Origin: Escherichia coli
Lineage (GTDB): Bacteria > Pseudomonadota > Gammaproteobacteria > Enterobacterales > Enterobacteriaceae
Reading direction: 5' to 3' (one strand)
Assembly (NCBI RefSeq): GCF_045037415.1
Contig: NZ_CP173438.1
DNA: 64,000 bases
In this document: piece after piece, positions 3,266 to 44,102 of the stretch
How the letters are laid out: each line of letters starts with the position of its first letter
Numbering within the stretch: the first letter of the stretch is position 1
Made by a program: the position numbers and the translations under genes
The notes under the pieces: model-generated
Databases searched by the model: none
What the model was told of the DNA's origin: nothing
The model's input: only the letters and a program-made list of their open reading frames with translations

Positions 3266-3433
<168 letters not shown>

Positions 3434-3543
3434 TCATGAGACTATTCTAACCGCTAAGCACAGAAAAGCACTCCCCTTTTGTGCGGTCAGCTTTGCGTGG
3501 CGTTCGTTTTCCGTCACAATAAGACTTTTGCCAGGACATTGTT

Positions 3544-4332
3544 ATGCAGGCCGAAATCCTTCTCACCCTTAAGCTCCAACAAAAATTATTCGCCGACCCG
3601 CGCCGCATTTCGCTACTAAAACACATTGCGCTTTCCGGTTCCATTAGCCAGGGAGCGAAAGATGCCGGTATCAGCTATAAAAGCGCCTGGGATGCCATTA
3701 ACGAGATGAATCAGTTAAGTGAGCATATTCTGGTTGAGCGCGCAACAGGCGGTAAAGGTGGAGGCGGCGCAGTACTGACCCGCTATGGTCAGCGACTGAT
3801 TCAACTCTATGACTTACTGGCGCAAATCCAGCAAAAAGCCTTTGATGTGTTAAGTGACGATGACGCCCTGCCGCTGAACAGCCTGCTGGCCGCGATCTCA
3901 CGTTTTTCACTGCAAACCAGCGCCCGTAACCAGTGGTTCGGTACCATCACCGCTCGCGATCATGATGACGTTCAACAGCATGTTGATGTCTTACTGGCTG
4001 ATGGAAAAACACGCCTGAAAGTCGCAATTACCGCACAAAGCGGCGCGCGTCTGGGGCTGGATGAAGGCAAAGAAGTGTTGATATTGCTAAAAGCGCCGTG
4101 GGTAGGTATTACTCAGGACGAGGCGGTCGCGCAAAACGCTGACAACCAATTACCGGGTATTATTAGTCATATTGAGCGCGGCGCAGAGCAGTGCGAAGTA
4201 TTAATGGCGCTACCCGACGGGCAAACACTGTGCGCCACAGTGCCGGTAAATGAAGCGACTTCTCTTCAGCAAGGGCAGAATGTCACGGCCTACTTTAATG
4301 CCGACAGCGTGATTATCGCCACGCTGTGCTAA
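3544..4332 (+). CDS. modE: molybdate-responsive transcriptional regulator
   Basis: 262 aa; N-terminal HTH and C-terminal Mop/TOBE domains; divergent from modABC. Confidence 0.95.
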   Translation: MQAEILLTLKLQQKLFADPRRISLLKHIALSGSISQGAKDAGISYKSAWDAINEMNQLSEHILVERATGGKGGGGAVLTRYGQRLIQLYDLLAQIQQKAFDVLSDDDALPLNSLLAAISRFSLQTSARNQWFGTITARDHDDVQQHVDVLLADGKTRLKVAITAQSGARLGLDEGKEVLILLKAPWVGITQDEAVAQNADNQLPGIISHIERGAEQCEVLMALPDGQTLCATVPVNEATSLQQGQNVTAYFNADSVIIATLC

Positions 4333-16392: not shown

Positions 16393-16468
16393 TGGTGGGT
16401 CGTGCAGGATTCGAACCTGCGACCAATTGATTAAAAGTCAACTGCTCTACCAACTGAGCTAACGACCC
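16393..16468 (-). tRNA. lysQ: tRNA-Lys(UUU)
   Basis: 76-nt exact match to recalled E. coli tRNA-Lys incl. CCA; symbol by position in operon. Confidence 0.93.
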
Positions 16469-16501
16469 CTTGCGGGATTATGCTGCTTTAATCATTCAGG
16501 A

Positions 16502-16577
16502 TGGTGGGTCGTGCAGGATTCGAACCTGCGACCAATTGATTAAAAGTCAACTGCTCTACCAACTGAGCTAACGACCC
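16502..16577 (-). tRNA. lysZ: tRNA-Lys(UUU)
   Basis: identical 76-nt tRNA-Lys copy. Confidence 0.93.
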
Positions 16578-16625
16578 ATACGGGTGTTACCTGAAAGATT
16601 TCTACTCGGAACCAATGTTTAAAAT

Positions 16626-16701
16626 TGGTGGGTCGTGCAGGATTCGAACCTGCGACCAATTGATTAAAAGTCAACTGCTCTACCAACTGAGCTAACGACC
16701 C
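16626..16701 (-). tRNA. lysY: tRNA-Lys(UUU)
   Basis: identical 76-nt tRNA-Lys copy. Confidence 0.93.
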
Positions 16702-16704
16702 GAG

Positions 16705-16780
16705 TGGTGGGTGATGACGGGATCGAACCGCCGACCCCCTCCTTGTAAGGGAGGTGCTCTCCCAGCTGAGCTAATCACCC
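16705..16780 (-). tRNA. valZ: tRNA-Val(UAC)
   Basis: 76-nt match to recalled E. coli tRNA-Val(UAC) incl. CCA; 3-nt spacer to next tRNA. Confidence 0.9.
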
Positions 16781-16831
16781 GATACTGCGCTGGATACTAC
16801 AAACTACTTCCACCGAACCCACCGTAATCAG

Positions 16832-16907
16832 TGGTGGGTCGTGCAGGATTCGAACCTGCGACCAATTGATTAAAAGTCAACTGCTCTACCAACTGAGCTA
16901 ACGACCC
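16832..16907 (-). tRNA. lysW: tRNA-Lys(UUU)
   Basis: identical 76-nt tRNA-Lys copy. Confidence 0.93.
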
Positions 16908-16909
16908 GG

Positions 16910-16985
16910 TGGTGGGTGATGACGGGATCGAACCGCCGACCCCCTCCTTGTAAGGGAGGTGCTCTCCCAGCTGAGCTAATCACCC
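16910..16985 (-). tRNA. valT: tRNA-Val(UAC)
   Basis: 76-nt tRNA-Val copy; 2-nt spacer to lysW. Confidence 0.9.
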
Positions 16986-17020
16986 GATACTACGCTGGAT
17001 ACTACAACTAACTATGTTAG

Positions 17021-17096
17021 TGGTGGGTCGTGCAGGATTCGAACCTGCGACCAATTGATTAAAAGTCAACTGCTCTACCAACTGAGCTAACGACCC
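17021..17096 (-). tRNA. lysT: tRNA-Lys(UUU)
   Basis: identical 76-nt tRNA-Lys copy; first gene of the operon. Confidence 0.93.
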
Positions 17097-17260: not shown

Positions 17261-18052
17261 TTACATCGCGTTCAGACGTTTTTGCGCCTGTTTAGCGCCA
17301 TCAGTACCAGGGTATTTACTGATAACCTGCTGGTATACGGCTTTCGCTTTTGCGGTGTCACCTTTGTCCTGCATGATGACGCCGACTTTAAACATCGCAT
17401 CTGCAGCCTTCGGTGACTTCGGATAGTTTTTCACTACCGAAGCAAAATAATACGCCGCATCATCTTTTTTACCCTTGTTGTAGTTTAACTGACCCAGCCA
17501 ATAATTGGCGTTTGGCAGGTAAGTTGAATCAGGGTAATTTTTGATGAAATTCTGAAATGCCACCATTGCGTCATCCTGGCGGGATTTATCCTGCACCAGC
17601 GCAATAGCTGCATTGTAATCCGTGTTTGCATCACCGCTTTTCACCGGCGCGCCAGCATTCGAAGTACCAGCATCAGCTGTCGGCGTCGTTGATGCCACCA
17701 CACCGCTTTGATCGCCGCTGGTTGATTGCGCCGCTGCACCACCGCTGCTGAGGCTGTCGATCTGCAACAGGATCTGCTTTTGCCGCTCCACGACCTGATT
17801 CAGTTGATACTGATTTTCCTGAATCTGACCACGCAGGGAATCAATATCGGATTGATTATCAGAGAGTTGTTGCTGGAGTTGGGTTAAAAGCTGGCTGTGA
17901 GCATTAGAAATACGCTCAAGTTGAGTGACGCGGTCTTCGACCGAGCCTGAGCCGACACTACTGATTGGTGCCTGAGCAAAAGCGGCCCAGGGGGCCGCTA
18001 TACCAACCAGTAACGACAGACTCAATAGTTGATGTCTGAAGTTACTGCTCAT
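17261..18052 (-). CDS. cpoB: cell division coordinator CpoB (TPR periplasmic protein)
   Basis: 263 aa; signal peptide, coiled-coil, C-terminal TPR; last gene of tol-pal cluster. Confidence 0.95.
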   Translation of the reverse strand: MSSNFRHQLLSLSLLVGIAAPWAAFAQAPISSVGSGSVEDRVTQLERISNAHSQLLTQLQQQLSDNQSDIDSLRGQIQENQYQLNQVVERQKQILLQIDSLSSGGAAAQSTSGDQSGVVASTTPTADAGTSNAGAPVKSGDANTDYNAAIALVQDKSRQDDAMVAFQNFIKNYPDSTYLPNANYWLGQLNYNKGKKDDAAYYFASVVKNYPKSPKAADAMFKVGVIMQDKGDTAKAKAVYQQVISKYPGTDGAKQAQKRLNAM

Positions 18053-18061
18053 GCAATTCTC

Positions 18062-18607
<546 letters not shown>

Positions 18608-36768: not shown

Positions 36769-36808
36769 GTGTTCTGTCCATCCTTCAGTAATCGTTATCT
36801 TTTAAACC

Positions 36809-36839
36809 GTAGACCGACCCCCTATCCACGTCGGTCTAC
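36809..36839 (-). other. intercistronic stem-loop between sucB and sucC
   Basis: perfect 10-bp inverted repeat GTAGACCGAC-N11-GTCGGTCTAC. Confidence 0.6.
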
Positions 36840-36861
36840 AGTGCAGGTGAAGCTTAAACTA

Positions 36862-38079
36862 CTACACGTCCAGCAGCAGACGCGTCGGATCTTCCAGCAA
36901 CTCTTTGATCGTTACCAGGAAGCCCACGGATTCGCGACCATCGATCAAACGGTGATCGTAGGACAGCGCCAGGTACATCATCGGCAGGATCTCAACCTGG
37001 CCATTCACCGCCATCGGACGATCTTTGATAGCGTGCATACCCAGAATTGCGCTCTGCGGCGGGTTGATGATAGGCGTAGACATCAGGGAACCGAACACAC
37101 CACCGTTGGTGATGGTAAAGTTACCACCAGTCAGATCTTCAACCGTCAGCTTGCCGTCACGGCCTTTAACTGCCAGCTCTTTAATTTTCTTCTCGATGTC
37201 TGCCATGCCGAGGGTATCGACATCACGCAGAACCGGCGTCACCAGGCCGCGCGGCGTAGAAACCGCCATACTGACGTCGAAATAGTTGTGGTAGACCACA
37301 TCATCGCCGTCGATAGACGCATTCACTTCCGGGTAACGTTTCAGGGCTTCAACCACCGCTTTCACGTAGAAGGACATAAAGCCCAGACGGATGCCGTGGC
37401 GTTTTTCAAACGCTTCACCGTACTGCTTACGCAGATCCATAATCGGCTTCATGTTGACTTCGTTGAACGTGGTCAGCATGGCGGTGGAGTTTTTCGCTTC
37501 CAGCAGACGCTCTGCCACACGCTTACGCAGGCGAGTCATCGGCACACGTTTTTCGCTACGTGCAGCCAGGGCCGGTTGCGCCGCCGGAGCAGCCGCTGCC
37601 GGAGCAGACTCTTTCGCCGGGGCTTTCGCCAGATGTTTTTCCACATCTTCACGGGTCAGACGACCACCCACACCCGTGCCTTTAATGGCGCTGGCGTCGA
37701 GGTTATGTTCAGCCAGCAGGCGACGGATCGCCGGGCTTAACGCATCGTTGTTTTGCTCTTCCAGAGACGCCTGCTGGCGTTGCGCCGGAGTGGACGCTTT
37801 CTCTTCAGATTTGGCGCTGGTTTCTTTACCGGCGCTGTTGCCTTCACGCAGGCGACCAAGGATCTGACGAGACGTTACGGTTGTACCTTCATCTTCCAGA
37901 ACCGCATCCAGAATGCCGTCTGCTGATGCCGGTACTTCCAGTACCACTTTGTCAGTTTCGATTTCTACCAGCACTTCATCACGTACGACTACGTCGCCGG
38001 GTTTTTTATGCCAGGTTGCGACGGTGGCATCGGCTACGGATTCAGGCAGGTCAGGGACCAGAATATCTACGCTACTCAT
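36862..38079 (-). CDS. sucB: 2-oxoglutarate dehydrogenase E2 (dihydrolipoyl succinyltransferase)
   Basis: 405 aa; lipoyl domain, Ala/Pro linker, catalytic domain. Confidence 0.98.
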
Positions 38080-38093
38080 TGTGTATCCTTTAT

Positions 38094-40895
38094 TTATTCG
38101 ACGTTCAGCGCGTCATTAACCAGATCTTGTTGCTGTTTCTGGTGAACGGACATATACCCTACCGCCGGAGAGGCGGAGGCCGGGCGGCCTGCATAACGCA
38201 GAGAAGCCCCAAACGGAATCACTTCACGGAAATGATGCTGGCTGCAGTACCATGCGCCCTGGTTGAGCGGCTCTTCCTGGCACCAGACAAAATCCTTGAC
38301 GTGAGCAAACTGCTGCAACACTTCCTGCATCGCTTTATGCGGGAACGGGTAGAGTTGCTCGATACGCACAATGGCGACATCGTGTTGATTGTTCTTACGA
38401 CGTTGTTCCAGCAGATCGTAATAAACCTTACCAGAACACATCACTACGCGCTTCACGCCCTTCGGATCAAGCTCGTCGATTTCACTGATGGCTGGCAGGA
38501 AGGTGCCGTTCGCCAGTTCTTCGAGGCTGGAAACCGCCAGCGGATGACGCAGCAGGGATTTCGGCGACATCACGACCAGTGGACGACGCATCCCGCGCAA
38601 CGCCTGACGACGCAGCATGTGGTAAACCTGTGCCGGGGTAGAAGGTACGCAAACCTGCATGTTTTGCTCAGCGCAAAGTTGCAGATAACGTTCCAGACGC
38701 GCGGAGGAGTGCTCCGGCCCCTGCCCTTCGTAACCGTGCGGCAGCAACATCACCAGGCCACACATCCGGCCCCATTTCTGTTCGCCAGAGGAGATGAACT
38801 GGTCGATAACCACCTGTGCACCGTTGGCGAAGTCACCGAACTGTGCTTCCCAGATGGTCAGGGTGCGTGGTTCTGCGGTGGCATAACCGTATTCAAACGC
38901 CAGTACGGCTTCTTCAGACAGTACAGAGTCCCAGACGCGGAACGCGCCCTGGCCGTTATGGATATGTTGCAGCGGCGTGTAAGTGGAACCGTTAGACTGG
39001 TTGTGGATCACCGCGTGGCGGTGGAAGAAGGTACCGCGACCGGAGTCTTCACCCGACAGGCGAACCGGAATGCCTTCGTCAACCAACGTGGCGTAAGCGA
39101 GGTTTTCCGCGCCGCCCCAGTCGAACAGTTTCTCACCGGCTGCCATCGCCTGGCGATCGCCATAAATTTTGGCAACGCGAGACTGCATTTCAACCGCTTC
39201 CGGCACCGTGCTGATGCGTTTAGCCAGTTCCTGCAGGCGCTTCATCTCAACTTTGTTCGGGTACTCTTCGTCCCATTCGTGGTTGAGGTACGGCGACCAG
39301 GTGAAAGAGTGCATGTTCATCGGACGCCACTCTGCTACAACGCAATCGCCAGCATCCAGCGCATCGCGGTACAGGTTAACCATCTCGGTGGCATCTTCCA
39401 GCGTCGCGACTTTTTCCTGCTCCAGCTTGTCAGCGTAGATTTTGCGCGGCGTCGGATGTTTTTTGATTTTCTGATACATCAGCGGCTGGGTTGCGCTCGG
39501 CTCGTCGGCTTCGTTGTGGCCGTGACGGCGGTAGCATACCAGGTCGATGAAGACATCACGTTTAAAGGTGTTACGGAAATCGAGCGCCAGACGGGTCACA
39601 AAGGCAACGGCTTCCGGATCATCCGCATTAACGTGGAAAATCGGTGCCTGAACCATCTTACCGATATCAGTACAGTACGGCGTCGAACGGGCATCCAGCG
39701 GGTTAGAGGTGGTGAAGCCAACCTGGTTGTTGATAACGATACGTACCGTACCGCCAACTTCATAACCACGCGCTTTCGACATGTTCAGGGTTTCCTGAAC
39801 TACGCCCTGCCCGGTCACTGCGGCGTCACCATGAATGGTGATTGGCAGCACTTTGTTGCTGCTCGGCTCATCAAGTCTGTCCAGACGGGCACGAACAGAA
39901 CCGATAACGACCGGGCTTACAATCTCAAGGTGAGACGGGTTAAACGCCAGCGCCAGGTGCACCAGGCCGCCATCGGTCTGGAAGTCAGACGAGAAGCCCA
40001 TGTGGTATTTCACGTCGCCCGTGCCGAGGTGTTCTTTATGTTTACCGGCAAACTCGTCGAACAAGTCTTGCGGTTTTTTACCCAGCACGTTCACCAGCAC
40101 GTTCAGACGACCACGGTGCGCCATCCCGAGAACCACTTCGCGGGTGCCGCTGTTGCCAGCGTGGCGGATCATCTCTTTAAGCATCGGGATTAACGCGTCA
40201 CCGCCTTCCAGCGAGAAGCGTTTTGCGCCAGGGAATTTTGCGCCAAGGTAACGTTCAAGGCCTTCAGCGGCGGTCAGTTCGCTTAAGAAGCGTTTTTTCT
40301 CTTCGCTATTGAAAGTCGCGCGACCAGACTCGATACGCTGTTGGATCCAGCGTTTTTCTTCGGTGCTGGTAATGTGCATATACTCGGCACCAATCGGGCC
40401 ACAGTAGGTTTGCTTGAGGGCTTCCAGCAGCTCGCCGAGTTTCATGGTTTCTTTGCCGCTGGCAAATGAACCGACGTTGAAGGTCTCCTGGAAGTCTGCT
40501 TCGGTCAGATCGTGGAAAGACGGATCCAGATCGGCCACTTTATCTTGCTGCCACAGTCCCAGCGGATCGAGATTCGCATGCTGGTGACCACGGAAGCGGT
40601 ATGCGTTAATGAGCTGCAGGACTTTAACCTGCTTCACATTGGTGTCAGGGTCGGAGATCGTTGAAGAGTAACGTGAAGCGTCTTTCGCCAGGCGGCGGAA
40701 ATATTCACGCGTTTGAGAGTGGAATTGATCCGGTTTGACTCCCGTACCAGGTAACTGCTGGAACGTCGAACGCCAGTTAGCGTCAACCGAGTCAGGATCG
40801 GTTAAGAAGTCTTCATAGAGCTGTTCTATCCAGCTCTGGTTTGCGCCAGAGAGGTAAGAAGAGTCCAACCAGGCTTTCAAAGCGCTGTTCTGCAT
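38094..40895 (-). CDS. sucA: 2-oxoglutarate dehydrogenase E1
   Basis: 933 aa starting [15 protein letters not shown]. Confidence 0.98.
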
Positions 40896-41068
40896 CGTGA
40901 TCCCTTAAGCATCTTTTTTATGCTTACTTCGCCGTGGATACTACCACGCACATTTCATATCTGATGTGCGTGCCGGGGTTCACTTGTTGCGGACTTGTCG
41001 TGTTTTCTGCGTCCGCTAAGGAACCTTTAAAAACTGTCTTAGTGTCAGGGGCAGTTTTTAAAGATTTC

Positions 41069-41255
41069 CTGCATTTCTTTTGTAGGCCGGATAAGGCATT
41101 CACGCCGCATCCGGCGCTGTTTGCCTGATGCGACGCTTGCGCGTCTTATCAGGCCTACGGTTTCTGCATTTCTTTTGTAGGCCGGATAAGGCGTTCACGC
41201 CGCATCCGGCACTGGTTGCCTGATGCGACGCTTGTGCGTCTTATCAGGCCTACGG
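41069..41255. repeat. BIME: two tandem ~95-bp copies, each a REP pair
   Basis: 41069-41163 and 41164-41258 near-identical; each holds GCCGGATAAGGCGTTCACGCCGCATCCGGC and GCCTGATGCGACGCTTGCGCGTCTTATCAGGCCTACGG. Confidence 0.85.
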
Positions 41256-41256
41256 T

Positions 41257-41973
41257 TTACGCATTACGTTGCAACAACATCGACTTGATATGGCCGATGG
41301 CGCGCGTCGGGTTCAGCCCCTTCGGACATACACTGACGCAGTTCATGATGCTGTGACAGCGGAATACACTGAATGCATCGCTCAAACCGTCGAGGCGGCT
41401 GTCAGTCTCGGTATCACGGCTATCGATCAGGAAACGATATGCCGCTAACAAGCCTGCCGGACCGATAAACTTATCGGGATTCCACCAGAAAGACGGACAA
41501 GAGGTTGAACAACATGCGCAGAGAATACATTCATACAACCCGTCGAGTTTTTCGCGCTGCTCTGGCATCTGTAAATGCTCGCGAGCTGGCGGATTTTGTC
41601 CATTATTCAACAGGTAAGGCTTAATTTTCTCATATTGCGCATAGAATTGTCCCATGTCTACCACCAAATCGCGGATCACCGGTAAACCTGGCAGCGGACG
41701 AATCACAATCTTCTTGCCCGGCTGGTTGAGTGCCGAAATCGGGGTAATACAGGCCAGACCATTCTTACCGTTCATGTTCAGACCGTCGGAACCGCACACA
41801 CCTTCACGGCAGGAGCGGCGGAACGACAGGCTGGGATCTTTCTCTTTCAGCTGAATAAGCGCATCCAGCAGCATCATGTCGCGACCTTCTTCCGCTTCCA
41901 GGGTGTAATCCTGCATACGCGGAGCATCATCAACATCCGGGTTATAGCGATAAATTGAAAACTCGAGTCTCAT
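41257..41973 (-). CDS. sdhB: succinate dehydrogenase iron-sulfur subunit
   Basis: 238 aa with Cys clusters for 2Fe-2S, 4Fe-4S and 3Fe-4S centres. Confidence 0.98.
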   Translation of the reverse strand: MRLEFSIYRYNPDVDDAPRMQDYTLEAEEGRDMMLLDALIQLKEKDPSLSFRRSCREGVCGSDGLNMNGKNGLACITPISALNQPGKKIVIRPLPGLPVIRDLVVDMGQFYAQYEKIKPYLLNNGQNPPAREHLQMPEQREKLDGLYECILCACCSTSCPSFWWNPDKFIGPAGLLAAYRFLIDSRDTETDSRLDGLSDAFSVFRCHSIMNCVSVCPKGLNPTRAIGHIKSMLLQRNA

Positions 41974-41988: not shown

Positions 41989-43755
41989 TTAGTAAGTACG
42001 AATCTTCGGCGGGAATGCCGGGCGCAGTTTCGGTTCCATGTTGACGCTTCGGCGCGTCATGGATTCCGACTCTGGCAGATACAGGGAGTGGCACAGCCAG
42101 TTTTCATCATCACGATCCGGGAAGTCGAAGCGGCTATGCGCGCCACGGCTTTCGGTACGGAAGTTGGCAGAAACAGCCGTTGCATACGCCGTTTCCATCA
42201 GGTTATCCAGTTCCAGGCACTCAACGCGCTGGGTGTTGAACTCGCTGGAAGTGTCATCCAGACGGGCATTTTTCAGACGCTCGCGGATAACTTTCAACTG
42301 CTCAAGCCCTTTCGCCATCGCATCACCTTCACGGAAGACCGAGAAGTTATGCTGCATACATTCTTGCAGTGCTTTACGGATCGCCACCGGATCTTCACCG
42401 TTACGGTTATTGTTCCAGCGGTTCAGGCGATCCAGAGACGCTTCTACATCAGACTCGCTGGCATCGCGCAGTGCGCCCTGCTCGGCGATAGACTCTTGCA
42501 GATGCAGACCTGCCGCACGACCAAATACCACCAGGTCCAGCAGCGAGTTGCCGCCCAGACGGTTAGCGCCGTGTACCGATACACAAGCGATTTCACCAAC
42601 GGCAAACAGCCCCGGAACAACCACATCTTCGCCTTTCTCATTCACCGTCAGCGCCTGACCGGTCACTTTGGTCGGAATACCGCCCATCATGTAGTGACAG
42701 GTTGGGATAACCGGAATCGGCTCTTTCACCGGATCGACGTGAGCGAAGGTACGGGAGAGTTCCAGAATACCCGGCAGACGGGATTCGAGAACTTCTTTCC
42801 CCAGATGGTCAAGTTTCAGTTTTGCGTGTGGCCCCCACGGACCATCACAGCCGCGACCTTCACGGATTTCGATCATGATGGAACGCGCCACCACGTCACG
42901 GCCCGCCAGGTCTTTGGCGTTCGGCGCATAACGCTCCATAAAGCGTTCGCCATGTTTGTTCAGCAGATAACCGCCTTCACCACGGCACCCTTCGGTGACC
43001 AGTACGCCCGCACCGGCAATACCGGTCGGGTGGAACTGCCACATTTCCATATCCTGCACCGGTACGCCTGCACGGATAGCCATGCCGACACCGTCGCCAG
43101 TGTTAATGTGGGCGTTGGTGGTGGACTGATAAATACGCCCTGCCCCGCCAGTCGCCAGCACTGTCGCGCGAGCTTTAAAGTAAACCACTTCACCAGTTTC
43201 GATGCACAGTGCGGTACAACCGACCACTGCGCCATCCTGGTTTTTCACCAGATCCAGCGCATACCACTCGGAGAAAATGGTGGTGTGGTTTTTCAGGTTC
43301 TGCTGATAAAGCGTGTGCAACAGTGCGTGACCGGTACGGTCAGCTGCCGCCGCAGTACGTGCCGCCTGCTCGCCGCCGAAGTTTTTCGACTGACCGCCAA
43401 ACGGACGTTGATAGATACGACCATCATCAAGACGCGAGAACGGCAGGCCCATATGTTCCAGTTCCAGAATCGCTTCCGGCCCGGTTTTACACATATATTC
43501 AATCGCGTCCTGGTCACCGATATAGTCCGACCCTTTTACGGTGTCGTACATATGCCATTCCCAGTTATCTTCATGGGTATTACCCAGCGCAACGGTAATA
43601 CCACCTTGCGCAGAAACGGTATGGGAACGGGTCGGGAAGACCTTAGAGAGCAGCGCACAGGTCTGGCCACTCTGGGAAATTTGCAGCGCCGCGCGCATAC
43701 CTGCGCCGCCAGCACCAATCACAACTGCATCAAATTCTCTGACTGGCAATTTCAT
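41989..43755 (-). CDS. sdhA: succinate dehydrogenase flavoprotein subunit
   Basis: 588 aa; FAD-binding GAGGAG; start at [14 protein letters not shown]. Confidence 0.98.
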
Positions 43756-44102
43756 CACACACCCCACACCACAACGAATCCATAAATCACGTAAACCACC
43801 AGTGCAACGACAATCACCAGTTGCAGCATCAGGCGCAAGGCCAGCGGTTTAACGTAGTCGGTCAACACCTGCCACATGCCGATCCAGGCATGGATCAAGA
43901 TAGAAAACAGCGCCAGCAGGGTGAACACTTTGGTGAACGCAGAGGCGAAGAAACCAATCCAGACTTCATATGTCAGCTCGCCACTGGTAGCGAAAAAACC
44001 GACCATATAAATGATGTAGAGCGTCAGGACGATAGCGGTAGCACGAACGAGGATGAAATCATGTACGCCATTGCGTCCTAATGCGGAGGCGTTGCTTACC
44101 AT
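43755..44102 (-). CDS. sdhD: succinate dehydrogenase membrane anchor subunit
   Basis: 115 aa hydrophobic protein. Confidence 0.97.

Follow-up and report, generated by a model that had tools for sequence, protein, structure and literature searches.

REP and BIME sequences are among the longest-known repeats of bacteria, and for the BIME-2 class a copy number that varies between strains has been documented. According to the Gilson/Bachellier classification as summarised in PMC3333891, a BIME-2 consists of z2 and y REPs in alternating orientation with a short linker, and occurs as tandem copies in a strain-variable number. A BIME-1 (RIB or RIP), on the other hand, is a single-copy element in which Y and Z1 REPs surround an L linker with an IHF site. 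Gyrase cleavage has been found to be enriched in BIME-2 (PMC6379681).

Several described systems are close to the repeat analysed here. REP325 (naRNA1-6) is a BIME-2 of six Y/Z2 units between yjdM and yjdN of Escherichia coli K-12 (PMC4550694; bioRxiv 10.64898/2026.03.23.713779). The sdhB-sucA site of K-12 MG1655 carries a REP cluster of its own (NC_000913.3 758406-758705), and this region has already been studied for processing and internal termination; from RNA-seq, an internal terminator and a secondary promoter are reported to balance the sdh and suc halves of the K-12 operon (PMC4161252). A further BIME-2, which is a strong gyrase cleavage locus (PMC6379681), lies between sucB and sucC of K-12. 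Finally, REPs of the malE-malF type, as described by Liang, Rudd and Deutscher 2015 in the citation given by PMC12306157, are intercistronic and at most 15 nt away from the stop codon of the preceding gene.

We have analysed a repeat between sdhB and sucA in a 64,000-nucleotide stretch of E. coli DNA, hereafter the window. It shares with the K-12 cluster the site, the initial Z2 and Y REPs with their start 3 nt past the sdhB stop, and the architecture of the downstream leader. The difference is that K-12 continues from Z2-Y to a short Z1 REP in a region of 300 nt, whereas in the window another complete Z2-Y unit follows, in a region of 361 nt, together with an alternative allele of two leader hairpins. 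The likeness to REP325 lies in the tandem Y/Z2 units between co-oriented genes of one operon, with the window units scoring 80-87 bits on a model derived from REP325. In contrast to REP325, however, the window has two units instead of six, a tail-to-tail linker that is 6 nt shorter, an inter-unit spacer that is locus-specific, and the opposite orientation to transcription, such that its mRNA is the complement of the naRNA4 sequence. The sucB-sucC element of K-12 belongs to the same operon and the same class but occupies a different junction, and the REPs of the malE-malF type comprise one or two REPs rather than an array of four. A literature search combining sdhB-sucA with REP returned nothing useful.

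Overall, we identify the segment as a BIME-2, with four REPs arranged in two tandem Y/Z2 units. The best explanation that we can offer combines this identity with a local duplication and a role as mRNA hairpins that would follow by analogy, and we assign it a probability of roughly 0.8. The repeat class is known, the site is known to carry REPs in K-12, variation of the copy number is typical, and the allele of the window is common, so the finding matters little beyond correct annotation.

Architecture and class of the repeat

A direct-repeat search of the window has revealed two head-to-tail 95-nt copies at a spacing of 95 with 95% identity, which we call units A and B (Table 1). Tandem Repeats Finder reports the array at 41069-41265 with a period of 95, 2.1 copies, 94% matches, no indels and a score of 352. 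The initial annotation had described a tandemly duplicated BIME between sdhB and sucA and had named an alignment that leaves a single copy as evidence against it; the two programs agree on two units, and our own count over the alignment gives two copies identical at 90 of 95 positions, with mismatches at 41068, 41098, 41116, 41120 and 41140. The position given in that annotation, 41069-41255, is correct as well. For a 95-nt pair at 95% identity within 64 kb, a chance origin is impossible.

Table 1 Coordinates of the repeat, its parts and the neighbouring features in the window
Feature	Position	Strand	Remarks
sdhA	41989-43767	-	
sdhB	41257-41973	-	TAA stop at 41257-41259; NCBIfam succinate dehydrogenase iron-sulfur subunit, 373.9 bits
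sdhB-sucA intergenic region	40896-41256		361 nt
BIME-2 unit A	41161-41255		sdhB-proximal, 95 bp; direct repeat and TRF period 95
Z2 REP, unit A	41218-41253	+	36 nt, GCCTGATGCGACGCTTGTGCGTCTTATCAGGCCTAC; matches Z2 hairpin of Rfam naRNA4 consensus
Tail-to-tail linker, unit A	41211-41217		7 nt, ACTGGTT
Y REP, unit A	41177-41210	-	34 nt, mRNA sense GCCGGATGCGGCGTGAACGCCTTATCCGGCCTAC
Head-to-head linker between units	41159-41176		18 nt, mRNA AAAAGAAATGCAGAAACC
BIME-2 unit B	41066-41160		sucA-proximal, 95 bp; direct repeat, reference copy
Z2 REP, unit B	41123-41158	+	36 nt
Y REP, unit B	41082-41115	-	34 nt
Helix P1 of sucA leader	41020-41069	-	directly downstream of the BIME; inverted repeat; folds
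Rest of structured sucA leader, to start codon	40896-41019	-	cross-genus conservation
sucA	38094-40895	-	NCBIfam 2-oxoglutarate dehydrogenase E1, 1670.6 bits
sucB	36862-38079	-	

In each unit a Y REP and a Z2 REP face in opposite directions, in agreement with the earlier description of each ~95-bp unit as an inverted REP pair. Both Y REPs follow the pattern GCCGGATG...CCGGCCTAC and align to the Y hairpin of the REP325-derived Rfam consensus, and both Z2 REPs follow the pattern GCCTGATG...CAGGCCTAC and align to its Z2 hairpin. On the plus strand the order is Y(-) Z2(+) Y(-) Z2(+), where each tail-to-tail gap measures 7 nt and the head-to-head gap 18 nt. That is, the mRNA reads stop codon TAA, ACC, Z2', Y, linker, Z2', Y, linker and leader. 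The first REP is thus very near to the coding region: its GTAG begins 3 nt past the sdhB TAA, and the local REP stem begins ~8 nt past it. The Y and Z2 types of the REPs, the short head-to-head linker, the tandem copies and the strain-variable number (see below) are all the properties of a BIME-2.

Of the 361 intergenic nt, the 190 next to sdhB are taken up by the repeat, and the remaining 171 are the sucA leader, which is conserved across Enterobacterales. The earlier statement that the BIME fills the whole region is therefore not correct. The region belongs to the minus-strand sdhCDAB-sucABCD operon, in which sdhB and sucA are co-oriented, so the BIME is placed between genes of the same strand. 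The 64-kb window is not enriched in REPs, and a regular expression finds only three other REP-like sequences in it (5891, 11431 and 61214).

The sucB-sucC intergenic region of the window (36769-36861, minus strand) is 93 nt long, compared with 274 nt in K-12, and contains a small hairpin GTAGACCGAC...GTCGGTCTAC and no BIME. As K-12 has a BIME-2 there, the strain of the window has more BIME sequence at sdhB-sucA and none at sucB-sucC. Routine features of the region, also on the minus strand, are seven tRNA genes and a match to the CpoB/ybgF thermometer with 153.7 bits (16396-17096 and 18023-18161).

Copy number among strains and origin of the array

The sdhB-sucA interval has been extracted from representative genomes, and its alleles can be ordered by length. 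An interval of 200 nt has no REP and carries the small unrelated hairpin GCCGGGGAAATCCCCCGGC instead; 265 nt corresponds to one unit, 300 nt to the K-12 form with Z2-Y followed by a short Z1 REP, 349 nt to two units joined to a K-12-type leader, 361 nt to the two units of the window, 455 nt to three units and 550 nt to four. The proposal that the BIME copy number at this site varies between strains is thereby borne out, since forms with 0, 1, 2, 3 and 4 units as well as the Z2-Y-Z1 form of K-12 have all been found.

The cross-strain comparison that had been suggested as a check was made on 5,426 complete E. coli genomes with allele-specific queries. We have found the BIME-free allele in 1,761 of them and the K-12 form, recognised by its Y-Z1 junction, in 2,253, while the remainder, ~1,400 genomes, have Y/Z2 arrays of 1-4 units. 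The number of genomes with at least two units is bounded between ~947 and ~1,400, as the junction query is contaminated by other BIME-2 loci and by partial matches. In two samples taken systematically down the BLAST ranking, with 88 chromosomes in total, we counted 36 of K-12 type, 28 without BIME, 13 with the two-unit allele of the window, 4 with two units and a K-12-type leader, 6 with at least three units and 1 with one unit. The two-unit allele of the window represents ~15% of E. coli genomes. One of the genomes with a 100% match to the unit-unit junction is of the type O25b:H4-ST131. In the type strain of E. albertii, the same site has four units (3.9 copies of the 95-nt unit) with a unit identity of 95%. 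The sdhB-sucA site offers a natural allelic series of 0-4 units on which REP arrays, recently proposed to be tunable 3'-UTR regulators, could be studied in an operon of central metabolism.

The small hairpin GCCGGGGAAATCCCCCGGC of the BIME-free allele, located from position 597 downwards in the extracted E. coli locus, resembles GCCGGGGAAGCGATTCCCCGGC in a Citrobacter sp. genome. This resemblance suggests that the BIME-free state is the ancestral one.

The junctions of the array are informative about how the second unit may have appeared. The end of sdhB meets unit 1 at ...CGTAATGCGTAAACCGTAGG, unit 1 meets unit 2 at ...AGAAATGCAGAAACCGTAGG, and unit 2 meets the leader at ...AGAAATGCAGGAAATCTTTA. 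Seen in this way, the inter-unit linker is composed of the downstream flank (..AAATGCAG/GAAATC) and the upstream flank (TAA/ACCGTAGG), joined at a short A-run. Other genera in which no BIME is present also conserve the motif TGCAGGAAAYCT found after the array, and it is therefore ancestral flank. Since the linker consists of downstream flank joined to upstream flank, we infer that one unit was locally duplicated in tandem together with its flank, rather than joined by a second, inserted element.

In this model a single Y/Z2 unit would have duplicated locally, and the array would then grow and shrink as its 95-bp repeats recombine unequally or slip, or possibly through the REP-associated transposase. 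Amplification of BIMEs by TnpA(REP) has been shown in vitro (PMC3333891), and by analogy it is possible for the sdhB-sucA array. We have also observed that the last sdhB codons (..AATGCGTAAACC, 41256-41275) resemble the inter-unit linker (..AATGCAGAAACC), which is the reason why Tandem Repeats Finder extends the array to 41265. This resemblance would fit a duplication through short imperfect homology between the flanks.

Predicted folding, possible role and alternative readings

For the complete intergenic region, the sense transcript has a predicted folding energy of -155 kcal/mol, compared with -97.6 +/- 5.5 kcal/mol for shuffled sequences (z = -10.5). In the predictions, the single REP hairpins reach -21.1 (Z2') and -15.1 kcal/mol (Y). 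Unit A as mRNA forms one imperfect hairpin of 77 nt in which Z2' pairs with Y (-46.3 kcal/mol), and unit B forms an imperfect hairpin with the same pairing (-46.0 kcal/mol). Nested within each other, both units can also form a single quasi-duplex of ~180 nt at a predicted -95.8 kcal/mol. The antisense strand is predicted to fold slightly tighter, with -49 to -50 kcal/mol per unit. A consensus scan of 40700-41500, which is insensitive and misses the weak suc promoter, found no intrinsic terminator and no sigma-70 promoter.

A hairpin behind sdhB is not peculiar to E. coli. Among the matches listed, 18 of 24 other Enterobacterales genomes, a sample that is patchy in species and without Salmonella or E. 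fergusonii, have a hairpin of -15 kcal/mol or lower that begins no more than 20 nt from the sdhB stop, and these hairpins are built from unrelated sequences. The recurrence of hairpins after the sdhB stop from unrelated sequences supports a structural role.

Superficieibacter electus has 660 intergenic nt after sdhB with 5.4 tandem copies of a 68-nt unit, which contains a different REP (GTAGGCCCGGTAAGCGCAGCGCCACCGGGC) and extends over 3286-3655 of the extracted locus. This array, one example of the hairpins built from unrelated sequences, is independent of the E. coli one but occupies the same site.

How might the array act? The BIME would be transcribed within the polycistronic mRNA, where each unit would fold into a very stable hairpin. 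By analogy with the described systems, the role of these hairpins is most likely to protect sdh RNA, to attenuate suc partially and to serve as an RNase III substrate. That is, by stopping 3'-to-5' exonucleases they would shield the sdh RNA upstream, they would partly attenuate transcription into sucABCD, and their long double-stranded stretches would be available to RNase III when it processes the transcript into an sdh and a suc half. Deletion of REP325 has been reported to lower the upstream RNA and to raise the downstream RNA, with termination partly dependent on Rho (bioRxiv 10.64898/2026.03.23.713779). The same preprint found no detectable Rho dependence for REP325 fragments of 2 to 4 hairpins, hence an array of four hairpins may attenuate only weakly. 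At the DNA level, the array would provide preferred gyrase sites, as this property has been published for its class.

As for RNase III, a REP-derived stem is cut by this enzyme in vitro (bioRxiv 10.1101/2022.04.01.486790), and in K-12 an RNase III-dependent site has been placed at coordinate 758515 from read-coverage ratios (PMC5371410). Since K-12 sdhB ends at 758405, this site is intergenic position 110, inside the third REP. RNase III is also said to cut the leader at three sites, with lower SucA in an rnc mutant (PMC9731577). The K-12 position is ~25 nt from the conserved non-REP helix P1 of the leader, which is a plausible substrate too, so the cleavage may fall outside the REPs.

The hairpins may have another effect on the upstream side. 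REPs at no more than 15 nt from a stop codon lower the translation of the upstream gene, according to Liang 2015 as cited in PMC12306157, and by the distance given in this citation the first REP, 3 nt past the sdhB stop, falls well within the range. As the hairpins lie within 15 nt of the stop codon, they could disturb the translation termination of SdhB; by analogy, a lower SdhB yield, ribosome stalling or tmRNA tagging may possibly result from the first REP.

It had also been proposed that the copy number may tune the ratio of sdh to suc expression, and by analogy with REP325 this is plausible. We can go one step further and imagine a heritable dial, specific to each lineage, by which the count of Y/Z2 units (or the K-12 form) sets the ratio of sdh expression to that of 2-oxoglutarate dehydrogenase and succinyl-CoA synthetase, with arrays that replaced the ancestral hairpin adaptively, but we hold this step to be quite doubtful. 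If it were true, multi-unit arrays such as those of the window, ST131 and E. albertii would measurably stabilise the sdh RNA and reduce read-through in comparison with the BIME-free allele, and the replacement of the ancestral small hairpin by BIME arrays would be adaptive and not neutral. Since a third of E. coli genomes are BIME-free, the element is dispensable, and the effect of its copy number may be small.

The same distribution also speaks for the alternative that survives best, namely that the BIME-2 is a neutral or selfish passenger without locus-specific function. According to this alternative any hairpin suffices, the copy number drifts by recombination, and no phenotype follows. The 1,761 of 5,426 genomes that have the small unrelated hairpin in place of the BIME, the similar small hairpin in a Citrobacter genome, the coexistence of alleles with 0 to 4 units, and the lack in the window of the K-12 BIME-2 at sucB-sucC are all in line with it. 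However, deletion of a comparable Y/Z2 array alters the RNA of both neighbours (bioRxiv 10.64898/2026.03.23.713779), E. albertii keeps four units at 95% unit identity, and the hairpins stand 3 nt past the stop codon in a highly expressed operon, a position for which an effect is predicted from the statement of Liang 2015 cited in PMC12306157. We regard a purely neutral passenger as possible, though on the unlikely side.

A different reading arises from Rfam, whose family RF02564 (naRNA4) matches the plus strand at 41180-41250 with 86.8 bits and at 41085-41155 with 79.6 bits, both above the gathering threshold of 59.5. Taken literally, the two units would be copies of a naRNA4-like sRNA gene, transcribed from the plus strand, whose product binds HU and condenses DNA. 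We consider this very improbable. A single 77-nt Y/Z2 unit of REP325 is the basis of the family (PMC4550694), which matches such units generically. At sdhB-sucA it recognises every unit of K-12 (88.4 bits for the first), of E. albertii and of an E. coli with four units, on the antisense strand of the operon in each case, and it also matches the sucB-sucC BIME-2 of K-12, marginally, with 59.8 bits. The strand matched in the window is likewise antisense to the operon, while on the minus strand, that is, in the mRNA sense, the two scores of 53.7 and 46.7 bits are below the threshold. The consensus scan around the repeat (40700-41500) found no promoter-like site on either strand, again with the reservation that it is insensitive and misses the weak suc promoter. 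Besides, the 2026 preprint reports no nucleoid compaction by REP325 or naRNA4 (bioRxiv 10.64898/2026.03.23.713779). Independent naRNA4-like sRNA genes have thus been rejected as the main reading, because the matches are generic to Y/Z2 units and antisense, with the sense strand below threshold. The matches classify the repeat by recognising its Y/Z2 unit and are no evidence of an sRNA gene; in practice, naRNA4 matches at sdhB-sucA should not be annotated as sRNA genes.

The initial annotation had also stated that such elements can bind IHF or gyrase. The gyrase part holds as a published property of the BIME-2 class (PMC6379681), but the IHF part does not, as the element is a BIME-2 and its intergenic region has no match to WATCARNNNNTTR at up to one mismatch. 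If it were instead an IHF-binding BIME-1 (RIB/RIP), it would bend the DNA upstream of the suc promoter, and IHF is said to repress that promoter, reportedly in a 1998 abstract by Cunningham and Guest. We find this scarcely credible: the REPs are Y and Z2 rather than Y and Z1, the head-to-head linker has 18 nt and is not the long L motif, the element is tandem, and the IHF consensus WATCARNNNNTTR with at most one mismatch was not found on either strand of the whole sdhB-sucA intergenic region. The classification itself places the IHF site in the long L linker of BIME-1 alone (PMC3333891). The BIME-1 candidate is therefore rejected on REP types, linker type and the absent consensus (at most one mismatch), and the IHF attribute is not applicable to the BIME-2 class.

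Lastly, the chance that the duplication is an artefact with one real copy is practically negligible, because two independent repeat finders concur, five substitutions separate the copies, all full-length matches of at least 99.5% in the systematic samples share the two-unit span, and many independent complete assemblies share the allele: an 801-bp stretch around the repeat is 100% identical in several independent complete genomes, and at 99% identity or more a 641-bp query across the site finds 924 complete E. coli records, a number that includes some partial matches from longer arrays.

The sucA leader beside the repeat

The BIME-2 borders on the helix P1 of the sucA leader, whose first 4 nt are shared with the end of unit B, though P1 stands outside the repeat family. 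In the mRNA, P1 is an AU-rich helix of ~19 bp, GGAAAUCUUUAAAAACUG...CAGUUUUUAAAGGUUCC. It is present in 16 of 16 aligned Enterobacterales leaders among the matches listed, with compensatory changes at several pairs. The alignment spans Escherichia to Yersinia, Photorhabdus, Providencia and Pantoea and leaves out the longer leaders; the P1 loop measures 4 to ~57 nt in the 16 aligned leaders and more than 100 nt in the longer, excluded ones. No Rfam match to P1 was found at E<=1. It may be P1 that RNase III actually cuts in the sucA leader.

The rest of the leader is conserved across genera in GUGAACC, in ACCACGGCGAA and in a hairpin that ends with AAGCUUAAGGGAUCA before the start codon. It resembles a 5' UTR with multiple hairpins and has no Rfam match, and RNAalifold on the leader alignment gives support limited to P1 and one short 3' helix. 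At ~40944-41016 on the minus strand, two leader hairpins exist as two E. coli alleles with changes on both sides of the stems: GCGGAC/GUCCGC in the window and E. albertii, and GCGAGC/GCUCGC in K-12 and the BIME-free allele. The 349-nt allele, which combines two units with the K-12-type leader, suggests that recombination has taken place inside the intergenic region. In several genera, a leader hairpin loop carries an insertion of ~100 nt with the motif ..CATCCCCAGGAGC..GTGACTGGGGT.., which resembles an ERIC/IRU element and may be one.
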